DNA of 64,000 nucleotides from Candidatus Aminicenantes bacterium UBA2190. GTDB lineage: Bacteria > Acidobacteriota > Aminicenantia > UBA2199. The notes beneath the pieces were generated by a model. It worked only from the letters and a program-made list of their open reading frames with translations. It ran no database searches and was not told the origin of the DNA. A program made the position numbers and the translations under genes. Positions 2 to 41,673 of this stretch are shown piece by piece. Position 1 is the stretch's first letter. Each line of letters starts with the position of its first letter. The stretch lies in contig DCVK01000071.1 in NCBI GenBank assembly GCA_002335385.1, positions 13,330 through 77,329 on the forward strand. Reading direction: 5' to 3'.

Positions 2-1192
2 GGCAGTCCGGAGTACATCCAGGGGCTGCAGCGGTCGCCGCGGCACTATTTTCAGCGCCCGGACGCCGGCCACCTTTCTCTCGACGACGGCGCCGCATCG
101 CTGAGCGGCTGGGCCGGCCGCGTCACCCTCAACCGCCAAAAAGGCAGCTTGATCTTCAACGCCGCCCTGGGCGGGATATCCCCGGGCTTCGAGGCCAACG
201 ACCTGGGCTACCAGTCGCGCGGCGACTACGTCAACACCCACCTGGCCGCCGGCTACCGCTGGCTCCATCCCGGCAAGCTCTTCCGCAATGCCCAGTTGCT
301 GGGAGCCACGGCCCGGAGCTGGGATTTCGGCGGTCATGCCCTCTTGGAGAACTATTACGTTTTTGCCTACGGCCAATTCCTGAATTATTGGGGCGGCGAG
401 ATCGACCTGGGGTACATCGACGCCGCCTTTGACAAGGAGGCCACGCGCGGCGGCGTCCTGCTGCGCCAGCCGCCCGCTTACTGGATCAACGGCTATTTTT
501 TCAGCGACAGCCGCAAACGGCTCGTGCTCTCCGTGTTCGGCGAAGCCTCGCGGCGGCGGGACGGCAGCTGGGACCTCGGCATCGGGCCCGAGCTTCTCTG
601 GAAGCCGCGCAGCAACGTCTCCTTCTCCATCGAGCCGGAGTTCGCGATCATCCGCAGCCATCGCCAGTGGGTGGCCAACGTCGCCGACCCGTTGATGACC
701 GCCACCTACGGTCGCCGCCACGTTTTCGCCCAATTGGACCAGAAGGTCCTCTCGGCCGAGATGCGCCTGAACTGGATCTTCTCCCCGCGCATCAGCCTGC
801 AGGCGTTCCTGCAGCCGCTGCTGGCCGTCGGCGCCTACTCCGGCTTCAAGGAACTGGCGCAGCCGGCCAGCCGGTGTTTCCGTTCCTATGGCTCGGACGG
901 TTCGACGATCGTCCGCGGTGCCGAGGGCTTTACTGTAGATCCCGACGGCACCGGCCCGGCGTCGTCGTTCACTTTCCCCGATCCCGACTTCAACTTCAAG
1001 TCGCTGCGCGGCACGGTGGTCTTCCGCTGGGAGTACCGCCCCGGTTCCACCCTCTACTTCGTCTGGACGCAGAACCGCCGGGACTTCGCCAACCCCGGCG
1101 ATTTCGATTTCAGGCGCGACCTCGGCGACCTGGTATCCGCCCAGGGCGACAATGTTTTCATGCTCAAGGCCACCTATCGATTCAATCTGTAG
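2..1192 (+). CDS. Outer-membrane beta-barrel-like protein, DUF5916-like (5' end lies outside the window)
   Basis: The frame is open from nt 2 with no stop, so the track's TTG at 149 is internal. Stop is TAG at 1190-1192. Alternating aromatic/hydrophobic strand pattern, ending ...KATYRFNL. The family name is from memory and unverified. Confidence 0.55.
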   Translation, partial: GSPEYIQGLQRSPRHYFQRPDAGHLSLDDGAASLSGWAGRVTLNRQKGSLIFNAALGGISPGFEANDLGYQSRGDYVNTHLAAGYRWLHPGKLFRNAQLLGATARSWDFGGHALLENYYVFAYGQFLNYWGGEIDLGYIDAAFDKEATRGGVLLRQPPAYWINGYFFSDSRKRLVLSVFGEASRRRDGSWDLGIGPELLWKPRSNVSFSIEPEFAIIRSHRQWVANVADPLMTATYGRRHVFAQLDQKVLSAEMRLNWIFSPRISLQAFLQPLLAVGAYSGFKELAQPASRCFRSYGSDGSTIVRGAEGFTVDPDGTGPASSFTFPDPDFNFKSLRGTVVFRWEYRPGSTLYFVWTQNRRDFANPGDFDFRRDLGDLVSAQGDNVFMLKATYRFNL

Positions 1193-1216: not shown

Positions 1217-1662
1217 CAGACGGCAGGGGGAAAAGTGTCAGTGTCAGTGACAGTGTCAGTGTCACTGTCAGCAGGAAAGGAAAGTAATCGGTTGACGGTA
1301 GACGGTTTACGGTTAACGGTCAGGATGGGTAATATTAAGACCTAAATCCCATTTCTTCGTTTGGGTCAATGTCCCAGCCAGGGGATTTGGCAATTTGAAT
1401 TTATTTGGGATTTGGAATTTGGTGCTTGGAATTTAATTCTTCACATGTCACGCGTCACGAAGATCGATTTCTTCTCTTTGTTTTGGACATTGGGTATTTG
1501 GAGCTTGGAATTTGTTTGGAATTTGGTGCTTGAGATTTGGAATTTAAGTCCTAATATTGCCTTTTTCTGACCCTCTACCGTAAACCGTCAACCGTACACC
1601 GAGTTCGCTCTGATGTTTTTTCCCTGCCGTCTACCGTCCGCCGTAAACCGTCAACCGTCCAC
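1217..1662. repeat. Mosaic intergenic element, copy A (6/7-nt periodic arrays plus AT-rich TTGGAAT-type core, nested inverted repeat)
   Basis: GTGTCA x6 at 1235-1270. NACGGTN heptamers at 1289-1321, with reverse-complement arrays at 1574-1600 and 1625-1662. Two direct AT-rich copies at 1354-1440 and 1470-1569. CACGCGT units at 1442-1460. Outer arms 1217-1350 and 1539-1662 are imperfect reverse complements. Confidence 0.85.
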
Positions 1663-1676
1663 CAAGCTCTTATAGT

Positions 1677-4424
1677 TCAATACACATTGCCGATGCCGAT
1701 CTGCACCAGGAAGTTCTGCTCGGCGGCCTTGCGCAGGTTGAAGGCGAAGTCAAGGCGGATGGGGCCCAGCGGCGTGCGGTACTTCAGGCCGAAGCCCAGT
1801 GCGCGTTCCATCTTCTTCAGGTTGAGGTCCGTGGACTTGCCGAACACGTTGCCCACGTCGGCGAAGAACGTGTAGAACAGGTTCTCCATGGGCAGCAGAA
1901 TGCTGGGCACGGTGGCCTCCAGGTTGAGCAGCAGCAGGATATTGCCGCCCTCGGGCTTGTCCGTATCGAGATTGATGGGGCCCAGGCGGTCGTTGCGCGT
2001 GCCGCGGAAGGAGTGCGAACCGCCGGCGAAGAAGCGCTCGGTGATCGACATGTCGCCGAAGCCGATGCCGTTCTTGACCGAGACGCTGAAGGTGCCGTCG
2101 CGCAGGAAGGGGTAGTGGCGTTGGTAGTTCCAGAAGAACTTCAGGAACGTGTAGTCCTTCTCGAACACGGGCAGGCCGAGCTTCAGGTCGGCGGTCAGGA
2201 AATGGCCGTTGCGGGGGTTGAACGGGTCATTGCGCCCCTCGTTGACGAAGGAGAGCGACAGGGCGGTGGTGTTGAAGGGTTTGTCCAGCTGGTCGACGCC
2301 GAACACCGGGATCTCCAGCCATGTGAGCGAGGTGCGGTACCACTTGGCCGAGCCGAGCAGGTACAGCTTGTCGGAGAATTTTTTCACGAACGAAGCGCCC
2401 AGCCCCCAGCGCTTGAAGCGGTAGCTGGGGTAGGTCTCGTCCTCTTCCCAGAGCTGGAGCGACGAAGTGATCTTCTGGTCGAAGAACAGGGGGGTGTCGA
2501 CGGTCAGGATGCCCCGGCGATCGTTGACCACCAGCTGCTTGTCGCGCGTGTTGATGCCCAGTTGCAGGGTGGCGGCGACGGACGAGGTCGATTGGAACAG
2601 GTTCCTTTCCTGGAACTCGAGCGTGCCGCGCGGGCCGCGGCGCTCCTCCCAGCCGACGCCGAAGCCGTAGAGGCGGCTGCGGTCGGGGGTGACCCGCACC
2701 AGGACATCGAGGACCTCGCCCTTCCTGGCGATCTTCTCCACGCGTACCTCGGAAAAAATGGCGCTGTTCTCGACATCGGTGCGGAAGGCGTCGAGTTGGT
2801 TGCGGCTGAACGGCTGCCCCCGGCGCAGCGGGAACAGTTTGCGCAAGAACCGGCGCTGGGAGGAGGAGGCGCCGATGAGGATCAGTTCGCCCATGCGCTG
2901 GCGCTCGTTCTCGCGGATGGTGATCAGCAGCGACTTCTCCTCGCCCGGGGAAAGCTCGTAGCTGACGACGGCGTCGTCGTAGCCCATGTCCCAGTAGAAA
3001 TTCTGCAGCCGGGCGATGTCGTCGCTGAACTGCTTGGGAACATAGGGGCTGCCGGTGCGGCTCTTCAGCAGCCGGTAGAGGTCGGTGCTGGCGAAAGCGC
3101 GGTTGCCGTTGAACTCGACGCTGCCCATGCGCAAGGACAGGCCCTCGCTGATGACGAAGTCGATGTCGACGCGGCGGCCGCGGAAGCTCGGTTCCAGGCG
3201 GATCTCGATGGGCGAGATGCCCTGGTAGTAGTAGTAGAGCTTGAGCACTTCCAGGTCGGCCACCAGGGAATTGAGCCGCAGCCAGAACAGCTTGTTGAAC
3301 AGCAGATCGTCGGCGCGGATGATCGCCTGGATCTTCTCGTCGCTCAGCGCCTGGTTGCCGCTGGCGGTGATCGCTCCCAACCGGTAGCGGCTGTTCTTTT
3401 GCGCCGTGAACACGATGGTCTTGTCCGCGCCGCGGGTGGTGACGGAGGATGCGATGCGGGCATCGAAGTAGCCCTCGTTCTTCAGGTGATTCAGCAGCCG
3501 GGCCCGGCTCTCCTCCTCGGCCCATTTCTCGAAGACCTGCCGCTCCCAGACGTCGGAGATCAGCGACATCCTGTCGGTCATGCCGTGGAAAAAGAAATGG
3601 TAGCGGAAGCCGCAGGCGATGGTCACCGTTACGTTGACCGCCGTGCGTTCGGGGTCCGAAAATTCCTCCTGCACCTTGATCTCCGGGAAATAATAGCGGT
3701 GCTCCTTCAGCCGCTTGCGGGCCTTTTCGCCCGCCTTGGCGAATTCGTCCGGGACATAGTGGCTGCGGCCGCCGTAAAAGCCGAGAATGGCGCCCGCCTG
3801 CTCCGGGTCATCGACGTCCACCACCAGGCGCGCGATGCGGGCGATGCGTCCCGGGGCGATGACGAACTGCACGGTGCAGGAGGAGCGGTCCCCGGAAAGG
3901 CTGACGCGGGGGGACACCCGGGCGTTGAAGTATCCTCGCGAGCGGAACAGGGTCTGCAGCTCCTCCACCGCCTTGGGCAGACGGCTCTCCTCGAACAACT
4001 CGCCCCGGCGCAGGGAATAAATGGCCGACCGCATCGCCTTCGTCCGCAGCGGCGGATCGCCGCTGAACTCCAGGGCGCGAACGCGCGGCTTGCGCTGCAA
4101 AAGGAAGAGGACGTCCAGCCCTCCGCCTTCCCTTTCCCGGACCTTGACCTCGATGCCGGCGAACAGGCCGGTGCGGTTCAGCCTCTCGATGTTGCGCCGG
4201 ACGTCGGGGTAGCGGTAGGGCTCGCCGCGGCGCAGGTCGACCAGGGGACGGTAGGGGAGCAGCCCGGCAGCGGCCTGCCCGTCGTCATCCAGCAGCAGCA
4301 CCTGGTCGATGAGCCGCTCCGACCCGGCGGCCGGTGCGGCGGCCAGCAGGCCGGCCGCCAGCGCCAGGAGCAGGCAGGCGGGCGCCAGCCGCTTGCGGGT
4401 GGGGAGTGCGTTGCGGCGTTCCAT
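1677..4424 (-). CDS. bamA: Outer membrane protein assembly factor, BamA/TamA (Omp85) family
   Basis: 915 aa. N-terminal signal peptide ([17 protein letters not shown]), repeated POTRA-like modules, and a C-terminal Omp85/D15-type barrel region (...GPIRLDFAFNL...). Sits immediately downstream of tamB. Confidence 0.85.
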   Translation of the reverse strand: MERRNALPTRKRLAPACLLLALAAGLLAAAPAAGSERLIDQVLLLDDDGQAAAGLLPYRPLVDLRRGEPYRYPDVRRNIERLNRTGLFAGIEVKVREREGGGLDVLFLLQRKPRVRALEFSGDPPLRTKAMRSAIYSLRRGELFEESRLPKAVEELQTLFRSRGYFNARVSPRVSLSGDRSSCTVQFVIAPGRIARIARLVVDVDDPEQAGAILGFYGGRSHYVPDEFAKAGEKARKRLKEHRYYFPEIKVQEEFSDPERTAVNVTVTIACGFRYHFFFHGMTDRMSLISDVWERQVFEKWAEEESRARLLNHLKNEGYFDARIASSVTTRGADKTIVFTAQKNSRYRLGAITASGNQALSDEKIQAIIRADDLLFNKLFWLRLNSLVADLEVLKLYYYYQGISPIEIRLEPSFRGRRVDIDFVISEGLSLRMGSVEFNGNRAFASTDLYRLLKSRTGSPYVPKQFSDDIARLQNFYWDMGYDDAVVSYELSPGEEKSLLITIRENERQRMGELILIGASSSQRRFLRKLFPLRRGQPFSRNQLDAFRTDVENSAIFSEVRVEKIARKGEVLDVLVRVTPDRSRLYGFGVGWEERRGPRGTLEFQERNLFQSTSSVAATLQLGINTRDKQLVVNDRRGILTVDTPLFFDQKITSSLQLWEEDETYPSYRFKRWGLGASFVKKFSDKLYLLGSAKWYRTSLTWLEIPVFGVDQLDKPFNTTALSLSFVNEGRNDPFNPRNGHFLTADLKLGLPVFEKDYTFLKFFWNYQRHYPFLRDGTFSVSVKNGIGFGDMSITERFFAGGSHSFRGTRNDRLGPINLDTDKPEGGNILLLLNLEATVPSILLPMENLFYTFFADVGNVFGKSTDLNLKKMERALGFGLKYRTPLGPIRLDFAFNLRKAAEQNFLVQIGIGNVY

Positions 4425-8510: not shown

Positions 8511-8574
8511 GATGCTTCTCCATTCCTGAGCGGTTCCCATTATAACAAATTCACGGGAAAAAGTAACGAACAAT

Positions 8575-8970
8575 CGGAACGCGGAACACGTTATGCGTTA
8601 TGCGTGATGAGAAAGAACAAGAACTTTAAATTCGTGACGCGTAACGCGTGACGCGTGACATGTGAAGAATTAAATTCCAAATCCCAAGCACCAAATTCCA
8701 AATAAATATCAAATTCCAAATTCCAATTACCCAAACAAAGACACTCACAGGTTCTTCTCTTCGTTTGGGTCAAAGTCCCCGCCAGGGGATTTGGTAATTG
8801 GTGATTGGTATTTGTTTGTGATTTGGAGCTTGGGATTTGGAAATTAAGTCCCAATATTGCCTTTTTCTGCCTGTCAACCGTTCACCAATTACTTTCATTT
8901 CCTGCTGACACTATCACTAACACTGGACTCGTCTCTAATTCTTGCTGACGCTGTCACTGACACTTGCTGT
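8575..8970. repeat. Mosaic intergenic element, copy B
   Basis: Heptamer arrays at 8575-8607 (cgcggaa/cacgtta/tgcgtta/tgcgtga) and CGTGACG x4 at 8633-8660. AT-rich inverted arms at about 8663-8741 and 8757-8850. TGACAC-type hexamers at 8906-8929 and 8945-8968. Blocks 8758-8798 and 8836-8869 are near-identical to 1354-1394 and 1536-1569. Confidence 0.85.
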
Positions 8971-8975
8971 TCGTT

Positions 8976-11126
8976 CTATTTCTTTTTGGCCCTGCTGCTG
9001 CTCGAGCCGGAGGATGAAGAGGAGCTGGAGGCGCGGCTCGAACTCCCGGAAGAAGAGGAGCCGGAGCCATAGCTGCGGCTGGGGGAGGATGAGCGACTGC
9101 CGCCGGAGTAGGAACTCCCGGCATAGCTGCTCGCGGGGCGGCTGTAGGTGGAGGGGCGGCTCGACATGGCCTGCGGGCTCGAGCTGCCGCCCGTATCATC
9201 GCTGCGGGAGCGGTAAGCGCCGTCGCTGGAGCCGGGCCGCGAATAGCTGGAAGCGCCGGCGGAGGAGGGGATGCTGCCGATATACCTGCGGCCGGAATTG
9301 GCGGCCGCCTGGCTCCCCGTGTCCTCGCTGGAGGTGTATGCGGAGCCGCTGCCTGAAACGGTGCGGCTCCGATAACGGGCGACCGGGGCGGCGGCGCCGG
9401 CGGCATGGCCGGAATCGCCGCTCCCCGAATACGAGAGGTAGGACGGCTCTCCTTTTTTCTTTTTTCTGGCCGTGCCGCTGGAGCTGCCGGATGAGGAGGA
9501 TGAAGAGGAAGATGAGGAGGAAGATGAACTGCCGGAGCGGCTGCGGTAGCTGCCGCTGCTCGAGCTGCCGGTGCTGGAGGAGCTGCTGTCGCCCGAGTCA
9601 TCGGACCGGCTGCGGTAGCTGCCGGTGCGGGTCGAGCTGCCGGTGCCGGAAGAACCGCCGGAGCCGGATGTGTAGCGGGTGCGGCCGGATGACTCGTCGG
9701 CGGCGCGCGAACGGAACTCGGTGTCGTCCTTGACGGCCGGGCGGATCGTTTCCCGGCTGCCCGGGGCGGCGCTGTACCTGTAGACGGAATTGCGGATATC
9801 GGACCCCTGGGCGCGGTACTTTTCCGCGCTGACGACGGCGCCCTGCTTGTAGGTCACCGAGCGGCCCCTGGCGTTGATCACCGTGACCTTGTTCAGCTCC
9901 GGGCGCAGGGAGGGGGCCGAACCGCGGAAGGCGATGGTGCCGTCGTTGCCCTGGCCCGGCGTGGTCTTGTTCACGGCCACGCGGTGGATGTTGGCGGCCG
10001 ACAGCTCGTTCTTGCGGATAATGATGGTGGAGCGGGAATGGTGCGGGATGCCGCGGTGGTAATCATAATGGCGGTCCCAGTGGTTGTTGATGATGACCAC
10101 CGGCCGGTTCCACCAGCTCAGCGGGCTCCAGCCGTAGTAATGGTCATTCCAGAACCAGGAAACCCATGCCGGTGACCAGTGGTAGGAGGGAATCCAGTAC
10201 CAGCCGTTATTGTAGCTCCAGTGCCAGCGGCCATAGTGGTGGGTGAACCAGCCGCAGGTGTCGTACGAGGTCCAGACGTAGCCGTAATAGGGGTTCCACA
10301 CCCAGCGGCCATTGGCATACGGCCTCCAGTCGGCGCCGGCATGGTAGGGACGCCAGACATAGGAACTGTAATCGGACATGTAGATCCAGCGGCCGGCACG
10401 CGACATCTCGTACTCATAGTCTTCGTAGCCCCCCTGCAGGTAGCGGGAGGTGCCGTAGCGCGCGTAGCCCAGATCGCGGTTCTGTTCCTCGTTCCAGCGG
10501 TCGAAATCGTCCTTCTCCGAGGCGTAGAAATAAAAGGGCCGCTCGGCCATCTGGCCGCGCGCCATGACGATCTTCTGGTTCTCGCGGACATTGCGGCTGC
10601 TATCGCTGCCGGCCACCTCGGCGATGCCTTCCAGCACGACCACTTCCGTCTGCCCTTTAACGCCGGAGTTGACGCGGTACACTCCCTTGTCCAGGAGGAA
10701 AATGCCGCAGTCGGCGGTCTGGATCTCGATGCCCTTTTCGCTGTCCAGGTTCTCGATCTCCAGGTAGATGCTCCCCTCCTCCAGGCGCACGGCCAGGTCG
10801 GTGCGGCGCAACGCCGGCACCTTTTCCAGCACGACCACCGTGTCGGCGTCCAGGCGCAGGTAGTTCAGGCGGCCGAGGTATACGGCCAGTCGGCCGTCGG
10901 TGGTGCCCACGACGTCCTTCTCGAACAGAGGCAGGTTGACCGTGGCCTCCTCCATGCCCTCGTCATAGGATCGTTGGACGAAACCCTCGCCCTCCACGCT
11001 CTTGACGCGCACGACCTTGGCGTTGTCGTAATATTTGGCTTCGTTGGCGTTCGCTTCCAGGTCGTCGGACCAGCAGGCGCCCGACAACAGCAGCAGGCTC
11101 GCCAATGCGATTATTGTCTTTTTCAT
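8976..11126 (-). CDS. Secreted FecR-domain / Trp-Tyr-rich (DUF6600-like) protein with a roughly 250-aa Ser/Gly/Arg low-complexity tail
   Basis: Start ATG at 11126 with a GAGGAGG 5 nt upstream. Signal peptide MKKTIIALASLLLLSGA. FecR-like beta region, then a W/Y-rich segment (WYWIPSYHWSPAWVSWFWNDHYYGW), then a C-terminal tail of YRSRS...SSSS repeats ending RAKKK. Confidence 0.7.
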   Translation of the reverse strand: MKKTIIALASLLLLSGACWSDDLEANANEAKYYDNAKVVRVKSVEGEGFVQRSYDEGMEEATVNLPLFEKDVVGTTDGRLAVYLGRLNYLRLDADTVVVLEKVPALRRTDLAVRLEEGSIYLEIENLDSEKGIEIQTADCGIFLLDKGVYRVNSGVKGQTEVVVLEGIAEVAGSDSSRNVRENQKIVMARGQMAERPFYFYASEKDDFDRWNEEQNRDLGYARYGTSRYLQGGYEDYEYEMSRAGRWIYMSDYSSYVWRPYHAGADWRPYANGRWVWNPYYGYVWTSYDTCGWFTHHYGRWHWSYNNGWYWIPSYHWSPAWVSWFWNDHYYGWSPLSWWNRPVVIINNHWDRHYDYHRGIPHHSRSTIIIRKNELSAANIHRVAVNKTTPGQGNDGTIAFRGSAPSLRPELNKVTVINARGRSVTYKQGAVVSAEKYRAQGSDIRNSVYRYSAAPGSRETIRPAVKDDTEFRSRAADESSGRTRYTSGSGGSSGTGSSTRTGSYRSRSDDSGDSSSSSTGSSSSGSYRSRSGSSSSSSSSSSSSSSGSSSGTARKKKKGEPSYLSYSGSGDSGHAAGAAAPVARYRSRTVSGSGSAYTSSEDTGSQAAANSGRRYIGSIPSSAGASSYSRPGSSDGAYRSRSDDTGGSSSPQAMSSRPSTYSRPASSYAGSSYSGGSRSSSPSRSYGSGSSSSGSSSRASSSSSSSGSSSSRAKKK

Positions 11127-11223
11127 TTTGGCCTCCTCGCTGAAAAGAAAGCAATTCATATGCCAAATCCCGGCAAGGGAAACTGTCCTGTTTTCGTGAC
11201 AAAGAAGCGGGAAAAGGCTGATA

Positions 11224-12819
11224 TCAGGACAGGTCCCGTGCCGCCGGCAGGCGGTTGAACATTTGCGTCAGCTGTCGCAGGCGGCGGCCGATCTCCGGGG
11301 TCAGCGCCCCCGGGGTCAGGCGCCAGCGCCAATTGCCCACGGCCTGGCCCGGGGTGTTCATACGGAAACGCTCGTCGTAGCCCAGGATGTCCTGCACGGG
11401 AAGCACAGCCAGGCGGGCCACCGACTGCATGGCCAGGCGGTTGAAGTGCCAGTGGAACTCGTCGCGATGGGCGAGACCCATGTAGTCCAGGACGGCCTGC
11501 TTCTGTGTTTCGCCCGTCTCCGGGCCGTAGAACCAGCCGTTGCTGGTGTTATTGTCATGGGTGCCGGTATAGACCAGGCAGTTGGCGTCGGTGAAGTTGT
11601 GGGGAAGGTAGGGGTTGGCGCTCTGGCCGTCGAAGGCGAACTGCAGGATCTTCATGCCCGGGAATCCCAGGCGTTCGCGCAAAGCCACTACCCCCGGCGT
11701 GATCTCGCCAAGGTCCTCGGCGACCAGTGGCAGCTCGCCCAGCTCCCGCTTCAGGTGATCGAAGAAGTCCATCCCCGGCCCCGGATGCCAGCGGCCCTTG
11801 ACCGCCGTCGGCTCCGCCTCCGGGATCGCCCAGTAGGAATCGAAGCCGCGGAAATGGTCGATCCGCAGCACGTCGACCATTTGCAGCAGGTGACGGATGC
11901 GCTCCCGCCACCAAACCATGGTCGGAGCATGAAGCGCCCCGTCCTGCTGCCAGCGGTAAAGCGGGTTTCCCCAGCGCTGGCCGCTGGCGCTGAAGTAGTC
12001 GGGCGGGACGCCGGCCACGAACGCCGGCCGCCCCGTCCCCTTATCGACCTGAAAGATTTCGGGGCGCGACCAGGCGTCGGCGCTCTCGAAATTGACGTAG
12101 AAAGGGATGTCACCGATGAGACGCACCCCCTGGCGGTTGGCCGTTTCTTTCAGAGCCCGCCACTGGCTGAAAAAGATGAACTGCTCGAAGCGCCGCCGGC
12201 GGATGGCGTCCTGCAGCTCGTTTTGCCAGCGGGCGACGGCGGCAGGTTGGCGACGGGAGATCGCGTCGGGCCAGTCGGTCCAGCGGAAAGTAGCGAAGCG
12301 ATCAGCCAGGGCGCGGAACAGGGCGTAATCCTCGAGCCAGCCCTTTTCCCTGGAGCAGAAGCCGGCGAAGGCGGAGTCGTCGCCTTCGGCGAAGAAACGC
12401 CGGGCGGACGCCTCCAGCCAGGCGGCGTTCCGGGCCGCAGCGGCGTCGAGGTCGCAGAAATCGCTCGCGGGGACGACTGCACCCGCGCGCAGCTCGTCGG
12501 CGCTGAGCCAGCCCCGCTCGTGAAGCGCTTGCGGGTCGATCAGCAGCTCGTTGCCGGCGAAGGTCGAAGGCGACGAGTAGGGAGAGAAATTCCAGTGCGG
12601 GCAGACCGGCCCCAGGGGCAGCACCTGCCAGTAGGACTGGCCGCTGGCGGCCAGGAAGGAGGCAAAGGCTGCGGCCTCGCGGCCCAGGGTGCCGCAATGG
12701 CGGTCGCCGGGCAGCGAAGTAATGTGCAGCAGCAGGCCGCTGGCGCGCTCAATGGCCACGGGTTCCTCCTTGCAGGCCCCGTCCAGGCGGGGCGAGACGG
12801 CCGTTCCCGGCCCGGTCAT
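11224..12819 (-). CDS. malQ: 4-alpha-glucanotransferase (amylomaltase, GH77)
   Basis: SGLLLHITSLPG..., full-length GH77-like sequence of 531 aa. Its ATG overlaps the stop of the upstream GGDEF gene (ATGA). Confidence 0.9.
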   Translation of the reverse strand: MTGPGTAVSPRLDGACKEEPVAIERASGLLLHITSLPGDRHCGTLGREAAAFASFLAASGQSYWQVLPLGPVCPHWNFSPYSSPSTFAGNELLIDPQALHERGWLSADELRAGAVVPASDFCDLDAAAARNAAWLEASARRFFAEGDDSAFAGFCSREKGWLEDYALFRALADRFATFRWTDWPDAISRRQPAAVARWQNELQDAIRRRRFEQFIFFSQWRALKETANRQGVRLIGDIPFYVNFESADAWSRPEIFQVDKGTGRPAFVAGVPPDYFSASGQRWGNPLYRWQQDGALHAPTMVWWRERIRHLLQMVDVLRIDHFRGFDSYWAIPEAEPTAVKGRWHPGPGMDFFDHLKRELGELPLVAEDLGEITPGVVALRERLGFPGMKILQFAFDGQSANPYLPHNFTDANCLVYTGTHDNNTSNGWFYGPETGETQKQAVLDYMGLAHRDEFHWHFNRLAMQSVARLAVLPVQDILGYDERFRMNTPGQAVGNWRWRLTPGALTPEIGRRLRQLTQMFNRLPAARDLS

Positions 12820-21413: not shown

Positions 21414-21451
21414 ATTAAAAAGAAAGGGCAGGCACGGGGGCCTGCCCCTAC
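21414..21451 (-). terminator. REP-like GTAG hairpin (copy 1) followed by a T-rich tract; candidate intrinsic terminator of the aor operon
   Basis: The minus strand reads GTAG-GGGCAGGC-CCCCGT-GCCTGCCC and then TTTCTTTTTAA. This is an 8-bp GC stem with a 6-nt loop, about 108 nt downstream of the aor stop. Confidence 0.5.
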
Positions 21452-21475: not shown

Positions 21476-21546
21476 GCCGTCGGCCGTAAACCGTCCGCCG
21501 TCAGCCGAGCCATTTAACGTCGAACAGCGAACGTCGAACAAAGAAC
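21476..21546. repeat. Two adjacent heptamer-periodic arrays (GCCGTNN x5, then AACGTCG-type x4)
   Basis: gccgtcg/gccgtaa/accgtcc/gccgtca/gccgagc at 21476-21510. aacgtcg/aacagcg/aacgtcg/aacaaag at 21516-21543. Confidence 0.7.
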
Positions 21547-21558
21547 CTCGGTCTTGCC

Positions 21559-27423: not shown

Positions 27424-27498
27424 GTCAACCTCCGAACGATTTTTCCTCTATTAGATATGGCGGAACGGCCGTTCATCTCATGAACCCAACGGGGAAAC

Positions 27499-27612
27499 AG
27501 TGAAAAGTGAAAAGTGAATAGTGAAAAGTGAATAGTTAAAAGAAGCCGCATTGCAGCGAACCATTGCTTTCATGTCATTGCTGTTTTACTTCTTATTTTT
27601 CACTTTTCACCC
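27499..27612. repeat. AGTGAAA heptamer array with an inverted partner (long hairpin) in a divergent promoter region
   Basis: agtgaaa x7 with variants at 27499-27545. CATTGC recurs at 27549, 27562 and 27576. The inverted partner cttcttatttttcacttttcaccc lies at 27589-27612. Confidence 0.75.
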
Positions 27613-27680: not shown

Positions 27681-28310
27681 ATGAGAATATTCACGGGCAT
27701 CGCTCTGGATGACGAGGTCAGAAGGAACGTCCTCAAGGAATTGCAGCCGTTCCAGAAGGCGGGCATTCCCATGCGCTGGACCGACGAGCGCAACATCCAC
27801 CTGACCTTGAAATTCATCGGCGAGGTGGCCGAGGCCGAGGCCGCGCGCGTGGGCGCGGTCCTGGAGGCGCTGCCCCCCGCTTCTTCCTTCCGCCTGCGCC
27901 TGCGCGGTTTCGGCAAGTTCCCCGCCGGGAACGGGTTGCACGTCCTCTGGGCCGGGGTGGAGGAGAGCCTGGAACTGCGGGCCCTGTTCGCCGTTGTCGA
28001 GGATGCCCTGGCGGCGCTGGGTATCCCCCGCGATACCCGTCCTTTCCATCCCCACGTCACCCTCGGCCGCAGTACGGACTCCCGGTCCGGCCGGCCCGGG
28101 ACGTCGGGGCTCCAGCGGCCCCTCCAGCCGTCGGTGCGGGGCCGTACGGCCGGTCAAGAATCCAATGGCGTCATGCCGCTGTTGCGGGAGAAGGGCGACC
28201 TCTTCCTCGGCGAATGGGAAGCGGCCGCCCATCGGCTTTATTCCAGCCGCCTGACCCCCGCTGGCCCTTCCTATACCGTTCTAAAGGAGATCCCCCTTGT
28301 CGAGTCATGA
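27681..28310 (+). CDS. thpR: RNA 2',3'-cyclic phosphodiesterase (2'-5' RNA ligase family, ThpR/LigT)
   Basis: MRIFTGIAL..., with two HxTx motifs (HLTLKF and HVTLGR). The start could alternatively be the ATG at 27672. Confidence 0.8.
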   Translation: MRIFTGIALDDEVRRNVLKELQPFQKAGIPMRWTDERNIHLTLKFIGEVAEAEAARVGAVLEALPPASSFRLRLRGFGKFPAGNGLHVLWAGVEESLELRALFAVVEDALAALGIPRDTRPFHPHVTLGRSTDSRSGRPGTSGLQRPLQPSVRGRTAGQESNGVMPLLREKGDLFLGEWEAAAHRLYSSRLTPAGPSYTVLKEIPLVES

Positions 28311-28896
28311 GATCCTTTATGTGGCCTGCTCCTACCTGCTGGGCTCCGTCCCTTTCGGCTACCTCATCTTCTTTTTCAGCGAGGGCAAGGATATCCGCAC
28401 CACGGGCAGCGGCAACATCGGCGCCACCAACGTGCTGCGCAGCAAGGGCAAGCTGGCCGGTCTGGCCACGCTGGCCCTGGACATCCTGAAGGGGGCGCTG
28501 CCGATCGTCTATGGCCGCGTCCATTTCGACCTGCCCTGGGTCGTGCTGCTGGGCGGCCTGGCCGTGCTGCTGGGCCACGTCTTCCCCGTCTTCCTGAGGT
28601 TCCGCGGCGGCAAGGGCGTGGCCGCGCTGGTCGGCGTCTTCCTGGTCTTCCATTATCCCTCCCTGCTGGCCTTCCTGGTGTTCTTCTTCGCTACCCTGGT
28701 GCTGACCCGCTATGTCTCGCTGGGCTCACTGCTGGGCACGACGGCGCTGTTCTTCGCCATCCTGTTCACCCAGACGGTCGAAACGGCCATGGTGGCGTTC
28801 GTCATGCTGCTGCTGATCGCGTTCCGTCACCGCGGCAATATCGCGCGCCTGCTGGAAGGCAGCGAAAGGAAGTTCGTCTTCAGGAAAAATGAATAG
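28297..28896 (+). CDS. plsY: Glycerol-3-phosphate acyltransferase PlsY
   Basis: GSGNIGATNVLR motif and multiple TM helices. 199 aa. Confidence 0.9.
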   Translation: MSSHEILYVACSYLLGSVPFGYLIFFFSEGKDIRTTGSGNIGATNVLRSKGKLAGLATLALDILKGALPIVYGRVHFDLPWVVLLGGLAVLLGHVFPVFLRFRGGKGVAALVGVFLVFHYPSLLAFLVFFFATLVLTRYVSLGSLLGTTALFFAILFTQTVETAMVAFVMLLLIAFRHRGNIARLLEGSERKFVFRKNE

Positions 28897-29899
28897 CATA
28901 CTGGTCATCGGCGGCGGCTCCTGGGGCACGGCCTTCGCCGACTACCTGGCCCGCCGGGGCGAAGATGTCCGCCTGTGGGCCAGGGAGGAGGAGGTCCTCG
29001 CCGCCATCCGCACGGACCGCGAGAACCGCGTCTTCCTGCCCGGAGTCAAGCTGTCCCCGCAGCTGGGGGTCGGCGCCGACCTGGAGGTCGAGGCCGGGCG
29101 CGCGGCCATTCTGGTACTGGCCGTGCCCTCGAAGTACATGCGCCCGGTGCTGCGGCGGCTGCAGGCTCTCCTCCGCGGGGACCACGCCCTGCTCTGCCTC
29201 TCCAAGGGCTTCGAGTCCGATTCCCTCAGGACCATGTCCCAGGTGGCGGCCGAGGTCTTCGGCCCCGGCGTGTTGCGGCAGTGGCTGACGTTGTCCGGGC
29301 CCTCCTTCGCCCGCGAGCTCGCGCAAGGGCACCCCACGGCCGTGGCCGCCGCCGCGGAGAACGAGGAGCTGCTCGGCCGCGTCCAGGAGAGCTTCTCTTC
29401 CCCGACCCTGCGCGTCTACCGCTCGGACGACCTGCGCGGCCTGGAGGTGGCCGGATCGTTGAAGAACGTGATGGCCATCGCTTCGGGCATGATCAGCGGC
29501 CTGGGCTACGGGTTCAACACCACGGCCTCCATGGTCACGCGGGCCAATATGGAGATCTCCCGCCTCGGCGTCCGCCTGGGGGCCAGGCCGGAGACGTTCT
29601 GGGGGCTGGCCGGGATCGGCGACCTGATGCTGACCTGTTTCGGCAGCCTGTCGCGCAACTTTCAGCTGGGGCGGCGCATCGCGCTGGGCGAGTCGCTGGA
29701 GGCGGTGGAGCGCTCGACGCCGATGGTGGCCGAGGGCGTGGAAACGACCAAGGCCATCCGGCGCCTGGCCGAGAATCTGGCCATCGAGATGCCCATCGCC
29801 CGCGAGGTGCACCGTGTGCTCTTCGAGGGCAAGAGCGTGGGCGAGGCGGTCGGCGAGCTGATGACGAGGAGCCTGAAAAGAGAATGGACTACAAGCTAG
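28889..29899 (+). CDS. gpsA: NAD(P)H-dependent glycerol-3-phosphate dehydrogenase
   Basis: ILVIGGGSWGTAFA Rossmann fold with full-length GpsA similarity. Overlaps plsY by 8 nt. Confidence 0.9.
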   Translation: MNSILVIGGGSWGTAFADYLARRGEDVRLWAREEEVLAAIRTDRENRVFLPGVKLSPQLGVGADLEVEAGRAAILVLAVPSKYMRPVLRRLQALLRGDHALLCLSKGFESDSLRTMSQVAAEVFGPGVLRQWLTLSGPSFARELAQGHPTAVAAAAENEELLGRVQESFSSPTLRVYRSDDLRGLEVAGSLKNVMAIASGMISGLGYGFNTTASMVTRANMEISRLGVRLGARPETFWGLAGIGDLMLTCFGSLSRNFQLGRRIALGESLEAVERSTPMVAEGVETTKAIRRLAENLAIEMPIAREVHRVLFEGKSVGEAVGELMTRSLKREWTTS

Positions 29900-31443
29900 A
29901 ATACCTGGCCGACGACGAGGTGAAGGTCTTCTTCCTGGCCAAGGAAGCGGTGGTCATCGGCAAGCTGCCCGACAACGACATCGAGTTGAAGGACAACACC
30001 GTCTCGCGCCAGCACTGCCGCCTGCAGCGCACCGCCAAGGGCTTCAAGCTCTCCGACATGAACAGCACCAACGGCTGCTACGTCAACGGCCGCCGCGTGC
30101 AGGCGAAGGCACTGGAGGTCGGCGACAAGATCACCATCGGCCGGACCATCCTCAGCTACCTGGCGGTCGACAAGAAGGAAAGCTACCGCGATACCGACGA
30201 CCAGCGGATCTCGATGATGGTCCCCCTGGAGGACCTGCTGCCGGCGGAGAAGAAGGCGCGGCGCAAGCGCGAGGAGCCGAGCTTCCTGGCCTCGCTCACG
30301 GCGCTGGGCAAAAGCCTGATCGCCTCCCAGGACATCGACGAGAGCTTCCAGAAGCTGGGCGACCTGATCTTCCAGTTCGTGCATCCCGAGAAGATCTATA
30401 TCTTCTACTATGACGAGAAGCAGAACGATGTCCGCCTCAAGTACACCTATTCCATGCAGGCGCAGGAGGCCGACGTCGTGCGCATCTCCAAGACCATCGC
30501 CCTAAAGGCCATCCATGAGAAGGTGGCCATCCTGTCGTCCAACACGCGCAACGACGCGCGCTTCGACAGCTCCAACAGCGTCATCATGTACGGCATCACC
30601 TCGGCCATCTCGGTGCCCATCTGGACCAAGGAGTGCATCTACGGCCTGATCTACGTCGACACGGCGAGCGTTTCCCAGGTGTTCGGCGAGAAGGACCTCG
30701 AGGTCATGTCCATCATCGCCAACTTCGCCGGCTTCGCCATCGAGGGGGCCAACAGCCTGGACAAGCTGAACCGCGAGCGGCGGCTGCGCGCCCGGCTCGA
30801 GCGCTACCACTCGCCGGCGGTGGTCTCGCGGCTGCTGGAGTTCCAGGACAGCAACACCGGCGAGCTCATGCCCTACCGCGAATCGGAGGCCACGGTCCTG
30901 TTCATGGATATCGTCCGCTTCACCTCGCGGGCCGAGCAGATGACCCCCATCGCCGTGGGCATGTTCCTGAACAATTTCTTCACCGAAATGACCGAGATCA
31001 TCTTCCGCCACAACGGCACGCTGGACAAGTTCATCGGCGACGCCATCATGGCCGTCTTCGGCGTTCCCCTCGAATGCGCCGATCATGCCGAGCGCGCCAT
31101 CGTCGCCGCCCTGGAGATGATGGCGCGGCTGGGCGAGCTCAATGGCCAGGTTGAGGAAAAGAACCGGGTGCAGGTGCGCATCGGCATCCATTCGGGCAAG
31201 CTGATCTCCGGAGACTTCGGCTCGCCCAAGCGCCTGGAATTCACGGTGCTGGGCAACACGGTCAACATCGCCTCGCGCCTGGAATCGACGGTGGCCGGCT
31301 GCGACGAGATCGTGGTCTCCGAGCAGACCCACCAGACGACCCGGGGGCGCTTCGCTTTCGAGCTTCTGGGCGAAAAGAAACTGACGGGCATTTCCAAGCC
31401 GTTGAAAGTGTACAAGGTCAAGGGACCAAAGGGGGCAACATGA
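29884..31443 (+). CDS. FHA-GAF-class III adenylate/guanylate cyclase
   Basis: ATG at 29884. FHA region is IGKLPDNDIELKDNTVSRQHCRL...STNGCYVNG. A GAF-like middle region follows. The cyclase domain includes VLFMDIVRFTSRAE...GDAIMAVFG. The track's 822-aa ORF is an overlap artefact with gpsA. Confidence 0.85.
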   Translation: MDYKLEYLADDEVKVFFLAKEAVVIGKLPDNDIELKDNTVSRQHCRLQRTAKGFKLSDMNSTNGCYVNGRRVQAKALEVGDKITIGRTILSYLAVDKKESYRDTDDQRISMMVPLEDLLPAEKKARRKREEPSFLASLTALGKSLIASQDIDESFQKLGDLIFQFVHPEKIYIFYYDEKQNDVRLKYTYSMQAQEADVVRISKTIALKAIHEKVAILSSNTRNDARFDSSNSVIMYGITSAISVPIWTKECIYGLIYVDTASVSQVFGEKDLEVMSIIANFAGFAIEGANSLDKLNRERRLRARLERYHSPAVVSRLLEFQDSNTGELMPYRESEATVLFMDIVRFTSRAEQMTPIAVGMFLNNFFTEMTEIIFRHNGTLDKFIGDAIMAVFGVPLECADHAERAIVAALEMMARLGELNGQVEEKNRVQVRIGIHSGKLISGDFGSPKRLEFTVLGNTVNIASRLESTVAGCDEIVVSEQTHQTTRGRFAFELLGEKKLTGISKPLKVYKVKGPKGAT

Positions 31444-32210
31444 AAAAGGTGATCCTGATGGCGGCGGCAACGGCGATGCTGCTGGCCTGCGGCGGCGGCC
31501 AGCCGCGCACGGCTCCGGGACAGCTGCAGCCCGGGTCGGCCGAATTCCTGGCCAACGAGGGCATCGGCTATCTCAACGAGGGACGGCTGGACGTGGCGGC
31601 GGACAGGCTGGAGGCGGCGCTGAAGAAAAACCCGCGCCTGGTGCCGGCCTTGAACGGCATGGCCCTGGTCCATGTCTACCGCCGCGAATTCCCCAAGGCC
31701 GTCGACCTGCTCAACCGCCTGCTGCAGGTCAGCCCGAAGTTCCATGACGCCTACAACCTGCTGGGCACGGTATACAGCGAGATGGGCGACTACGAGCAGG
31801 CCAAGGAGAAGCTGCTCATCGCCGCCAATGCCGAGGAATATCAGACGCCGGAGAACTCCTTCGCCAACCTGGCGATGCTGGAGATCAAGTTCGGCAAGCA
31901 TGAATCGGCCTTGCGCTACGCGGAGAAGGGGCTGCAACTCAATCGGCGCTTCGCCCCGCTCTTCAATCTGAAGGGACTGGCGCTGGAGAACCTGAACCGC
32001 CTGCCCGAGGCCGCCGAGAGCTTCATCCGCGCCCTGGCCCTGCTGCCCGCGCCGGAGCCGCTCATCCTGGTCAACAGCGCCAGGGTCGCCGCCCGGCTCG
32101 GGGAAAAGAAGAAGGCGCTCGACCAGCTGGAGCAGGCCCTGGGCCGGACCCAGGACGCGGCCCTGAAAGCCGAGATCATCCGCATGATCAGGGAAGTGGA
32201 AGGGCGCTGA
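31440..32210 (+). CDS. Tetratricopeptide-repeat lipoprotein
   Basis: Lipobox MLLACGG and TPR-like repeats throughout. ATGA overlap with the cyclase gene. Confidence 0.7.
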   Translation: MKKVILMAAATAMLLACGGGQPRTAPGQLQPGSAEFLANEGIGYLNEGRLDVAADRLEAALKKNPRLVPALNGMALVHVYRREFPKAVDLLNRLLQVSPKFHDAYNLLGTVYSEMGDYEQAKEKLLIAANAEEYQTPENSFANLAMLEIKFGKHESALRYAEKGLQLNRRFAPLFNLKGLALENLNRLPEAAESFIRALALLPAPEPLILVNSARVAARLGEKKKALDQLEQALGRTQDAALKAEIIRMIREVEGR

Positions 32211-32220
32211 AGCTCCCGCG

Positions 32221-32249
32221 TTGACAGGCAGCGGAATTCTCCCTATAAT
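32221..32249 (+). promoter_or_regulatory. Consensus sigma70-type promoter upstream of rubredoxin
   Basis: Perfect TTGACA (32221-32226), a 17-nt spacer, then perfect TATAAT (32244-32249), about 60 nt upstream of the rubredoxin ATG. Confidence 0.6.
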
Positions 32250-32308
32250 TGGGACCCAAGGCCGGAGCGGTGCCGATCCCGGCCCCGGCGGCATGAAAGG
32301 AGGCGGAC

Positions 32309-32470
32309 ATGAACAAGTATGTATGCACCGTGTGCGGCTACGTATACAACCCGGCCGACGGCGATCCCGACTCGGGAATCCAGCCGGGCACCGCGTTCGA
32401 GGACATCCCCGAGGATTGGGTCTGCCCGGTCTGCGGGGCCGGCAAGGACTCTTTCGAGCCCACGGACTGA
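32309..32470 (+). CDS. Rubredoxin (53 aa; below the ORF-track length cutoff)
   Basis: [53 protein letters not shown] carries both CxxCG knuckles. RBS is AAAGGAGG. Confidence 0.92.
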
Positions 32471-32549
32471 GCGGGAAGGGAAGATTCCTGGCCGGTCATG
32501 AGGCCGGTGCCGTTGGCGTCACCTTTTATTTTCTCACCTTGGAGGCAAC

Positions 32550-33737
32550 ATGGCGGCCATTGAACTGAAAAAAGATATCATTTGGGTGGGGGCCCTTGAC
32601 TGGGACCGGCGGCTCTTCGACGAGCTGATCCCGCTGCCCGACGGCACGTCGTACAACGCCTACCTAGTGCGCGGCAGCAGCAAGACGGCCCTGATCGACG
32701 CCGTCGACCCGGCCAAGGCCGGCGACCTGCTGGCCAACCTGCAGCAGGCCGGAGTGACGCGCATCGACTACCTGGTCAGCCAGCACGCCGAGCAGGATCA
32801 TTCGGGCACCATCGGCGACGTCCTGGATCTGTTTCCCGAGGCCAGGGTGGTGACCAACGAGAAGTGCAAGGCCATACTCCGGGACCTGCACCAGCTGCCG
32901 GAAGACAGGTTCCAGGTCGTCGCCGACGGCGCGACGCTGGACCTCGGCGGCCGGACCCTGGAGTTCATCCTGGCGCCTTGGGTGCACTGGCCCGAGACCA
33001 TGCTCACCTATCTGCGCGAGGACAAGGTCCTGTTCAGCTGCGATTTCCTGGGCGCCCACCTGGCCCAGAGCCACCCCGTCCTCAGCGACGAGGCCCGCAC
33101 GCTCAGCGCGGCCAAGCGCTACTTCGCCGAGATCATGATGCCTTTCCGCGGGCCGATCCGCAAGCACCTGGAGAAGCTGCAGGGAATGGCCATCGACATG
33201 ATCGCCCCTAGCCACGGCGTGGTCTACCCGCGCCCGGCCCTGATCCTCGACGCCTACCGCGAGTGGGCGTCCGACGCCACCCGGAACCTGGCCCTGATCC
33301 CCTTCGTCTCCATGCACGGCAGCACCCGCGAAATGGTGGAGTACCTTGCCGACGCCCTGGTGCGCCAAGGGGTCGAGGTCGTCCCCTGCAACCTGATCAC
33401 GGCCGACGTCGGCGAGTTGGCCAAGGAGCTGATCGATGCCTCCACCCTGGTCCTGGCCACGCCGACGGTGCTGGGCGGCGCCCACCCGGCCGCCGCATCC
33501 GCCGCCTACCTGATCAACGCTCTGCGGCCGAAGACGAAGTTCGCCTCGATCATCGGCTCCTATGGCTGGGGCGGCAGGACGGAGGAGAGCCTAAGGGCCT
33601 CCCTGGGCAACCTCAAGGCTGAATTTTTGCCGACGGTGCTGGTCAAGGGCTACCCGGCGGAGAAAGACTACCGGGCCCTGGACGAGCTGGCCGCAGCCAT
33701 CGCTGACCGGCACCGCGACATCGGTGTCCTTTCCTGA
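32550..33737 (+). CDS. Flavodiiron protein (rubredoxin:oxygen/NO oxidoreductase, FprA/ROO type)
   Basis: The metallo-beta-lactamase-like N-domain carries the diiron motif HAEQDHSG. A flavodoxin-like C-domain follows. 395 aa. Confidence 0.9.
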   Translation: MAAIELKKDIIWVGALDWDRRLFDELIPLPDGTSYNAYLVRGSSKTALIDAVDPAKAGDLLANLQQAGVTRIDYLVSQHAEQDHSGTIGDVLDLFPEARVVTNEKCKAILRDLHQLPEDRFQVVADGATLDLGGRTLEFILAPWVHWPETMLTYLREDKVLFSCDFLGAHLAQSHPVLSDEARTLSAAKRYFAEIMMPFRGPIRKHLEKLQGMAIDMIAPSHGVVYPRPALILDAYREWASDATRNLALIPFVSMHGSTREMVEYLADALVRQGVEVVPCNLITADVGELAKELIDASTLVLATPTVLGGAHPAAASAAYLINALRPKTKFASIIGSYGWGGRTEESLRASLGNLKAEFLPTVLVKGYPAEKDYRALDELAAAIADRHRDIGVLS

Positions 33738-33821
33738 AAGACGTTTTGACGTCTTGCCCGGCGTTCGCTTTGCGCGTACAATGAACCCGGCAATCGATGG
33801 CAACGTAGAAAATTCGCTAGC

Positions 33822-34439: not shown

Positions 34440-34442
34440 TCA

Positions 34443-35192: not shown

Positions 35193-35202
35193 GGAGGCGA
35201 TC

Positions 35203-35658: not shown

Positions 35659-35663
35659 AAGAA

Positions 35664-36012: not shown

Positions 36013-36032
36013 CGTTGTTTATTCTTTCCTTG

Positions 36033-38451: not shown

Positions 38452-38460
38452 CTTCTCCTC

Positions 38461-41608: not shown

Positions 41609-41673
41609 CCGGTCGTCGCGGAGGCGGCGCGAAATATTGCCGGCGCCGCCCGGTATACAAGCGTCGGCAAGAT

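Follow-up and report, generated by a model that had tools for sequence, protein, structure and literature searches.

Among the long simple repeats of many bacteria, tandem arrays of a 7-nt unit are, to our knowledge, the most frequent kind; both the unit and the role of the arrays have gone unexplained for decades. Described examples include the cyanobacterial short tandemly repeated repetitive (STRR) sequences and the intergenic repeats TAACTGA (Beggiatoaceae, cyanobacteria and Bacteroidetes), GGGAATC (Xanthomonas) and GGGGAYT (Nostoc). Four-helix-bundle proteins, also known as 23S rRNA intervening-sequence (IVS) proteins, form a large family scattered in operons, CRISPR loci and rRNA, for which we know of no role beyond the Avd relatives; Avd, from diversity-generating retroelements, is a small, basic, pentameric four-helix bundle that binds nucleic acid. 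Avd is related to this family (PF05635/TIGR02436) and belongs to the same superfamily (PMC10053308), and in the Coxiella IVS tandem heptamers (GACAGAT, three copies, variable in number between strains) lie just upstream of the S23p open reading frame (ORF) (PMC4990558). Here, we analyse a 64,000-nt stretch of Candidatus Aminicenantes bacterium UBA2190 (contig DCVK01000071.1, positions 13,330 to 77,329; hereafter the window) and, in particular, a 484-nt spacer between two convergent genes, which we denote element A. We present evidence that heptanucleotide repeats and the four-helix-bundle family go together. Element A and two further elements of the window, B and C, are probably gene-less copies, akin to MITEs (miniature inverted-repeat transposable elements), of an AT-rich cross-phylum cassette, which in its complete form carries an Avd/S23p-like gene between heptad-periodic inverted arms.

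Element A occupies the whole spacer (1193-1676, no strand assigned) between a DUF5916 outer-membrane protein gene on its left (2-1192, plus strand) and a BamA/Omp85-like gene on its right (1677-4424, minus strand). Its centre holds two direct AT-rich copies, as a first-pass annotation made from the letters alone had noticed: 1381-1446 and 1492-1557 are 73% identical, and a profile of the repeat core extends them to core A1 (1347-1448, plus; 44.8 bits by nhmmer, with arm alignment) and core A2 (1472-1563, plus; 80.4 bits). The TTTGG heptad-periodic core A1 has a CCCAGCCAGGGG hairpin in its head and a type-3 end (..AATTCTTCACATGT), which runs into a short CACGCGT-type tail (1442-1462, plus; CACATGT CACGCGT CACGAAG, one exact and two partial units, assigned from the sequence and the arm alignment). 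Core A2 is a full core with a type-1 end (..GGAATTTAAGTCCTAATATTGCC), and an orthologous core exists in a contig (L050) from another metagenome-assembled genome (MAG). Its proximal tail is an ACCGTNN heptamer array of 3.6 copies (1567-1602, plus; from the tandem- and inverted-repeat search), and a second such array, of 5.3 copies (1627-1663, plus), stops 14 nt short of the BamA-like stop codon. On the left, the last roughly 30 nt of a minus-strand core (GGGATTT..AGGTCTTAATATTACC; 1321-1350, minus) form a stump recognized by its inverted-repeat match and by arm alignment. The stump is followed outwards by an ACCGTNN array of 4.6 copies (1289-1320, minus; NACGGTN on the plus strand), by a conserved type-1 linker (1272-1288, minus; the reverse complement of ATTACTTTCCTTTCCTGC) that emerged on aligning the minus arm of A with the plus arm of B, and by a GTGTCA/GTGACA hexamer array (1234-1271, plus; 6.3 copies). 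This last array is homologous to 8909-8968 in element B and is the distal array of the type-1 tail belonging to the minus arm.

The first-pass annotation had counted six repeats of GTGTCA in exact 6-nt register; Tandem Repeats Finder does recover the array (1234-1271, period 6, 6.3 copies, 87% match), but only four units are exact, the variants being GTGACA and CTGTCA. The NACGGTN heptamers stand as described, with 4.6 copies at 1289-1320 and complements at 1577-1601 and 1627-1663, and an 18-nt pattern of this type matches the window 15 times against 0.3 expected. The outer blocks are indeed imperfectly inverted: 1288-1323 and 1567-1602 are 83% complementary, 1328-1356 and 1533-1561 79%, and the outermost repeat, AGACGGCAGGGGGAAAA (1218-1234, plus) with TTTTTTCCCTGCCGTCT (1616-1632, plus), is 88% complementary and paired in the predicted fold. 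The nested inverted repeat that had been proposed is not a clean palindrome, however: element A consists of a truncated minus arm and two different plus arms in tandem. We read it as a rearranged copy, non-coding and lacking a gene, within a family of dispersed repeats.

Autocorrelation of element A at lag 7 is 0.421 compared with 0.258 in Markov shuffles (z = 7.9), with a further signal at lag 14 (z = 6.2); pooled curated intergenic DNA of the window gives z = 8.9 at lag 7, whereas its coding DNA shows period 3 only. The period-7 signal proposed earlier therefore exceeds shuffled controls. Its suggested recurrence in most of the larger spacers was too generous: the element type does recur, but full elements occupy three of about 23 spacers and arrays alone three more. 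With A, B and C removed, the remaining intergenic DNA of the window has no period-7 excess (z = 1.1), so that the signal comes from the three large elements and the three array-only sites. The 484-nt spacer is unchanged in two independent assemblies (a European Nucleotide Archive contig and a Joint Genome Institute contig), and element C is identical in three others, which excludes an assembly artefact; a Logan short-read contig breaks off 134 nt inside spacer A. Element A is genuine sequence that is prone to break assemblies.

To define the family, we built a core profile from pattern-anchored copies and counted nhmmer matches of at least 40 bits. The profile matches six cores in the window and 107 cores across 54 loci. 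The core has a fixed length of about 95 nt, with a head (..CTTYGTTTTGG), four TTGGNNN units, TTGT, four or five further TTGGNNN units, TTAAGTC and a short end, and can be described as a run of nine or ten TTTGGNN heptads with one fixed 11-nt step. Across 105 copies the TTTGG columns are 98-100% invariant, and variation in each heptad is limited to two or three positions that toggle among a few states (AAT, TGC, AGC and GAT). Conservation has a period of 7, not 3, which indicates that the core is non-coding and that the ORFs running through it are not genes. Paired cores are arranged head-to-head in 30 cases, in tandem in four and tail-to-tail in one, and 39 cores are solo. All copies are intergenic; convergent spacers are over-represented among elements (13/38 compared with 36/251 spacers), divergent spacers hold 6/38, and solo cores have no preferred orientation relative to neighbouring genes (10 versus 8 overall, 6 versus 4 co-directional).

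The tail beyond each core tracks the type of its end: type 1 comprises ACCGTNN heptamers, the conserved linker and TGACAC hexamers; type 2 comprises CCTTACG-type, GTCACGC and CATAACG arrays; and type 3 is CACGCGT. Further tail words elsewhere include GAGGTCA, GTGGAAC, GGCGTAC, GTGAAAA and many others. Tandem repeats in 502 kb of related loci most often have a period of 7 (269 arrays, 79 different words), and differences between the units of an array are confined to two or three of the seven positions (z = 10.3), to which higher-order 14-nt units may contribute. A scan of species-representative genomes located the core mainly in Aminicenantes MAGs (for example UBA2199 and UBA6072), but also in a ‘Clostridia’-labelled MAG, which shares 87.7% identity with 6.9 kb of the window, and in MAGs labelled Chrysiogenales, Planctomycetia, Vogelbacteria and delta proteobacterium. 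BLAST searches of phage and plasmid collections returned no match to the core, and seven pattern matches in viral contigs were dismissed as chance similarity within AT-rich coding DNA. The elements break short-read Aminicenantes assemblies and produce spurious ORFs in them; the core profile would aid annotation.

Elements B and C represent the canonical form, in which cores are paired head-to-head. Element B (8574-8975, no strand assigned; located by tandem-repeat search, arm alignment and profile matches) contains the arrays GTTATGC (three copies, 8589-8609) and GTGACGC (3.9 copies, 8633-8665), facing cores at 8657-8754 (minus) and 8768-8863 (plus), and a type-1 tail of ACCGT-like units, linker and TGACAC hexamers as far as about 8968. 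Element C (35659-36032, no strand assigned; arm alignment and profile matches) is a canonical pair, with ACGGT (three copies, 35665-35692), an alpha core (35697-35796, minus), a beta core (35790-35888, plus) and a type-2 tail to about 36012 (CCTTACG-type, GTTACGCGTCACG and CATAACG-type). The two arm types are distinct: identity is 0.86 between alpha arms and 0.80 between beta arms, but 0.747 between the alpha and beta arms of one locus, which is below the cross-locus value of 0.784 (permutation p = 1.0).

The meaning of the two arm types became clear in complete copies. In one related locus (L077), a gene for a 113-aa four-helix-bundle protein lies exactly between two facing cores. The protein is a member of TIGR02436/PF05635 (‘four helix bundle protein’ or 23S rRNA intervening-sequence protein), and its closest solved relative is 2RLD, with five chains. 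The family has a very large membership; its close homologues of the L077 protein (64-81% identity) bear many different phylum labels, and most of them lie on very short contigs. We sampled six further protein clusters of the L077 subfamily in this identity range, labelled Aminicenantia, Chitinophagales, Jorgensenbacteria and Nitrospinae, with two unlabelled. In all six, the gene has a minus core abutting its start codon and between one and three plus cores beyond its stop codon; arm scores range from 10 to 79 bits and are clear in six of the seven clusters including L077 and weak in Chitinophagales. The same fixed heptad-periodic arms border the gene in hosts that carry the labels of at least five phyla, with the beta arm as its 5′ flank and the alpha arm as its 3′ flank. 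In the gene-bearing locus L112, the correspondence with the window extends to the junctions: the centre of element C, CCAAAACAAAGAGAATCC-TTTGC-AAGGAGCTTTCGTTTTGG, matches both L112 junctions with the 342-nt ORF left out, CCAAAACGAAGAAGGAGAAATAATAA[342-nt ORF]ACACT-AAGCGCTTTTGTTTGGG. A PF05635 ORF lies between arms predicted to pair in the relatives L077, L111-L129 and L138-L147, whereas the arms in the window enclose none. Because the arms of both types are those that border the four-helix-bundle gene on its 5′ and 3′ sides, the window elements are best understood as gene-less, MITE-like derivatives.

The composition of the cassette is foreign to its GC-rich host. In L112, GC content at third codon positions (GC3) is 0.90-0.93 in host genes compared with 0.39 in the cassette gene, which explains why the AT-rich core of element A, as the first-pass annotation had correctly remarked, is a composition outlier (GC 0.39-0.48 compared with a window mean of about 0.65). 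Structure prediction for L112 gives a fold in which the two arms are base-paired with the ORF enclosed between them (z = -5.75).

Comparison with the ORF-containing 23S rRNA IVSs of Leptospira and Coxiella reveals several shared features: the complete relatives encode a protein of the same PF05635/TIGR02436 family, their gene lies between arms predicted to pair into a long stem, and IVSs and cassettes are both viewed as selfish and horizontally spread. In contrast to IVSs, which reside in helix 25 or 45 of 23S rRNA and are removed by RNase III, the examined copies all lie between or inside protein-coding operons (no rRNA match was found in the window), and the copies in the window lack the ORF and have arms made of a fixed TTTGGNN heptad series plus heptamer tails. 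STRR sequences, the analogue named by the first-pass annotation, are a fair comparison: they and the other intergenic heptanucleotide repeats are likewise non-coding tandem 7-nt units of several words, often near gene ends. Here, however, the arrays are built around a conserved, fixed-length, cross-phylum core arranged head-to-head, and the arm types match both flanks of a specific gene, a link that we did not find for STRR in the literature searched. No described family of this kind was found there either, as had been surmised.

The elements also resemble MITEs and mosaic repeats such as Correia elements, enterobacterial repetitive intergenic consensus (ERIC) sequences, the repeat unit of pneumococcus (RUP), pneumococcal BOX and the bacterial interspersed mosaic elements (BIMEs) of E. 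coli, in that they are small, non-coding, multi-copy, intergenic and imperfectly palindromic, with enrichment at 3′ gene ends, modular variable internal units, a tendency to break short-read contigs and a longer gene-bearing form. They differ in that the product of the gene-bearing form is a helical bundle of 113 aa and neither a transposase nor a repetitive extragenic palindrome (REP)-associated tyrosine transposase (RAYT); no target-site duplication or defined terminal inverted repeat could be established; the outer boundaries are variable arrays; and the copies are stable at orthologous sites, changing mainly by block replacement. REP/BIME sequences are 20-40-nt GC-rich palindromes with a RAYT in the genome, whereas the core consists of an AT-rich series of heptads 95 nt long, and inspection near its copies showed no RAYT. 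The gene in complete cassettes shares its superfamily with Avd, but the sampled cassettes, inspected for 0.5-1.5 kb on each side, are neighboured by ordinary operon genes and have no nearby reverse transcriptase, template or variable repeat, and we know of no recognition of heptamer repeats by Avd. A further parallel, by analogy only, is the Omega repressor of pSM19035, which binds 7-bp operator units (WATCACW) in direct and inverted orientation, one dimer of the small protein per unit, with a similar pattern of four or five conserved and two or three free positions per unit. Omega is, however, a ribbon-helix-helix protein acting on plasmid promoters, and neither such a protein nor such a promoter context is present here.

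Orthologous sites record how the family changes. The MAG contig L050 carries cores at both the A and B sites, and both of its ends fall within elements; beside its BamA-like gene the arm end and tail are of another type, and two B arrays are absent. Element C lies in the spacer between an aspartate kinase (AK) gene and a TPM-domain gene, and related genomes show a series of states at this site. In L093 (AK 86% identical) the same core pair is accompanied by different arrays; in L094 (79%) the spacer holds a core-free 304-nt insert with inverted GGCGTAC arrays at its borders; in L095 (74%) it holds a ParE/Phd toxin-antitoxin pair (11408-11999); and in L096 (72%) there is no spacer, and the two stop codons abut. 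This junction between convergent genes has repeatedly received inserted DNA. Orthologues with 86-88% identity have wholly different tails. The family is inherited at fixed sites and is remodelled when whole arm-plus-tail blocks are replaced between copies and when arrays are gained or lost. The centre of the L094 insert (11369-11672, with GGCGTAC/GTACGCC borders) contains a possible small ORF with a CWNCLRC motif. A further contig, L097, is 97.6% identical to the window and has no local differences around element C; it is uninformative on strain-level variation because its differences are clustered elsewhere. Compared with 28195-47400 of the window, L097 is identical across most of the first 16 kb, but beyond locus position ~16,400 some 15% of positions differ; so abrupt a change points to a recombination tract or a chimeric assembly.

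Heptamer arrays also accompany more distant homologues of the gene. Homologues are encoded on 29 of 72,556 plasmids, 14 of the 29 being from Nostoc. We took the first six plasmids without viewing the flanks of the genes (two from Nostoc and one each from Anabaena, Pseudanabaena, Bernardetia and Chondrinema, all of them cultured cyanobacteria or Bacteroidota), and all six genes have period-7 arrays at most 200 nt away on both sides, in words that differ from the TTTGG core. By comparison, when gene-sized intervals were placed at random within 50 kb of sequence from two of the plasmids, 0.6-1.3% were flanked alike. In Nostoc flagelliforme the gene lies between 4.4 copies of TTCAAAA and 4.6 copies of TTTTGAA, and in Anabaena cylindrica between 9.4 copies of AAGTAAA and 7.3 copies of AAAAGTA. 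A model in which arrays are footprints of 7-bp target duplications predicts direct flanks and was rejected, as the flanks of element A and of the Nostoc flagelliforme gene are inverted. The plasmid genes sit within operons (between cas2 and cas1, an RND adaptor and permease, or cheB and a kinase), as is usual for selfish insertions. Three of them (L130, L131 and L133, on Nostoc, Anabaena and Pseudanabaena plasmids) are close to cas1, either separating it from cas2 and oppositely oriented or located just upstream of it; 23S_rRNA_IVP genes had already been described in cas loci (PMC3936711), with which this agrees. The Coxiella GACAGAT repeats aside, the literature searched does not link this protein family to heptamer repeats, although database curators may have noted the connection.

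These observations raise the broader possibility, which we put forward tentatively and regard as the less likely outcome, that TIGR02436/PF05635 (Avd/S23p) proteins are the trans-acting partner of bacterial heptanucleotide repeats generally, cyanobacterial STRR included, each subfamily having its own 7-nt word. Gene plus heptamer arms would then constitute a new mobile cassette that spreads across phyla and has no conventional transposase, and gene-less arrays would be its non-autonomous copies or footprints. If the association of repeats and gene holds, both the heptamer repeats and the role of the four-helix-bundle family become testable by ordinary experiments in culturable cyanobacteria.

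As for how the cassette might work, it could be a selfish element that crosses phyla. Under read-through transcription its arms would pair as a long imperfect stem, as in rRNA intervening sequences, insulating the host transcript, and the transcribed arms might form an RNase III-type stem. The nucleic-acid-binding four-helix-bundle protein may recognize the heptad-periodic arms as its cis sites and copy, insert or regulate its own cassette; the gene-less elements A, B and C would be served in trans or would be relics. The GC-rich heptamer tails could have arisen at cassette borders by slippage in 7-nt register or by the same process. The first-pass annotation had remarked that heptamers would suit a phased DNA-binding protein, and the four-helix-bundle protein is a candidate for that part.

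Several observations weigh against a gene-less cassette origin for A, B and C. The 64-kb window contains no four-helix-bundle gene, and its presence in the same genome is suggested only by a contig from the same metagenome that has the same repeat vocabulary. No transposase, integrase or reverse transcriptase is recognizable in the cassette, and neither a transposase nor any other recurrent neighbour gene was found beside copies at 53 loci. A target-site duplication is not definable, as the outer borders are variable arrays and the empty site in L096 consists of abutting stop codons. Orthologous cores diverge at approximately the rate of third codon positions (0.78-0.81 compared with 0.72-0.83), so that constraint is visible only in which columns change; purifying selection judged by rate was rejected on this ground. 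The phylum labels are record titles, and in L035, the single case checked, protein homologues point to Desulfobacterota. Some of the plasmid genes have direct, not inverted, arrays at their flanks. Heptamer arrays, in cyanobacteria as well as here, mostly do not lie beside a four-helix-bundle gene, and causality could be reversed, with the gene inserting into arrays.

That last possibility is part of a host-centred account, in which arms and arrays are host elements at gene ends (sites for nucleoid proteins or gyrase, insulators, or BIME/REP-like bidirectional terminators) and the four-helix-bundle gene, selfish and distinct from them, inserts into them by preference. We consider this unlikely, but several observations favour it: the sampled loci hold 30 gene-less pairs and one gene-bearing pair, convergent spacers are enriched, elements are kept at orthologous sites, arrays without cores or genes are common, and some plasmid genes lie inside a direct array of one word as if splitting it. 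The strand antisense to the core is, moreover, C-rich and almost G-free, like a Rho-loading site. The unbiased orientation of solo cores speaks against this account, however, and led us to reject a Rho-loading or terminator role; divergent (promoter) spacers are not depleted; and the elements have no sigma-70-like promoters and no excess of intrinsic terminators. At the core 3′ end there is a possible -35/-10 motif, but only about 45% of copies carry its key A (position 2). Also against host elements, the same arm of about 95 nt accompanies the gene in hosts of 35-65% GC and is AT-rich even where GC3 is 0.9, the alpha and beta types correspond to the 3′ and 5′ sides of the gene, and the element is absent from the same site in sister lineages.

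It is very unlikely that the elements have neither function nor mobility and are by-products of replication slippage that favours 7-nt units and piles up wherever insertions are tolerated. Slippage favouring such units in many bacteria is attributed to Mrazek 2007 in the summary given by PMC4679880. The predominance of period 7 and the diversity of words in related loci, the wholly different tails of orthologues and the extension of arrays to within 9-22 nt of stop codons would fit this account. For the core it is already contradicted by a fixed length and invariant columns in 105 copies from many genomes. It also leaves unexplained the strict head-to-head rule, the pairing of particular arm ends with particular tail types and the confinement of unit differences to two or three of seven positions, with the reservation made above for 14-nt units; and four independent assemblies are identical, indicating that the arrays are not hypermutable on that scale.

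A small-RNA account fares marginally worse. Each core would either act as a sponge for an RNA-binding protein, offering GGA at 7-nt intervals (compare CsrA) or triplets of period 7 (compare HutP), or be a structured RNA under conservation. The core is extremely strand-asymmetric, G/U-rich with C nearly absent, carries five or six GGA motifs per 63 nt, and, in element A, lies in a spacer predicted to fold well on both strands. A long hairpin is predicted on both strands of A (z = -6.4 and -8.3) and on the plus strand of B and C, the values for all three elements ranging from -6.4 to -8.3. The hairpin foreseen by the first-pass annotation thus appears in prediction, but its reading as a structured RNA or cruciform was not supported: partner arms do not co-vary and are less alike than random arms (0.726 versus 0.785), so a selected structure is not indicated, and we rejected it. 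No compensatory variation was seen, and common variants at columns 92 and 94 disrupt a candidate terminal hairpin. Rfam 15 has no match in the window at the gathering threshold and none at E <= 1 in 1150-1720, pair centres have no promoter-like sites, and solo cores have no preferred orientation.

Least probable, and already contradicted by conservation with period 7 rather than 3, is a small W-rich hydrophobic peptide of the type I toxin kind (for example 28 aa, MEIGIWSLEFVWNLVLGIWNLSLRIAFF, after AAGGAG-N8-TTG): an ORF does cross 1361-1570 and AAGGAG does lie 8 nt upstream of TTG in alpha heads, but heptamers of core composition have no stop triplets in any frame, which makes open frames automatic, common variants are non-conservative in frame (TGC versus AAT), the stop position differs between copies, beta arms lack the AAGGAG motif, and in L112 this motif aligns with TAAGCG just past the four-helix-bundle stop codon.

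Centres of another kind occur in some core pairs. In L075, L090, L011, L070, L026 and L112 (3109-3133), the heads do not abut and a centre of 75-116 nt carries 8-nt repeats, CTTCAACG/GTTGAAGC, a period-8 module amid a period-7 vocabulary. Some pairs have centres of 75-209 nt, in which tblastn found no remnant of the four-helix-bundle ORF; CTTCAACG 8-mers are there instead. Short TTGGGATTTGGAA segments lie inside other heptamer arrays (CTAATTG, GCTGGAT, GTTTGAA and CATACGC), often as inverted pairs, in loci of other phyla: L008 and L087 (Omnitrophota), L018 (Patescibacteria), L062 (Bacteroidia), L080 (Anaerolineales) and L027 (Calditrichaeota). The heptamer-array architecture is thus widespread among uncultured lineages.

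Three sites in the window have arrays alone, all on the plus strand. At 21476-21550, 4.6 copies of GCCGTNN are followed by 3.4 copies of AACGTCG, ending 9 nt before the stop codon of a gene. The site at 27494-27610 comprises 6.9 copies of GTGAAAA (27494-27542), a centre of about 50 nt and two inverted TTTTCAC copies (27594-27610), and that at 63561-63626 comprises 2.5 ACGGT-type copies, a linker and 3.6 copies of GTGACGA. A second, unrelated repeat is a GC-rich, REP-like hairpin, GTAGGGGCRGRCCCCCGTGYCYGCCC, with three copies in both orientations (21423-21450, 63685-63712 and 63743-63770); hairpins resembling it adjoin heptamer elements in L023 and L064. Finally, the DUF6600 gene at 8976-11159 (minus strand) is atypical in its GC by codon position (0.52/0.57/0.84), and 9489-9668 within it holds tandem repeats with units of 72, 18, 15 and 12 nt, which indicate a repetitive, low-complexity segment in its product.

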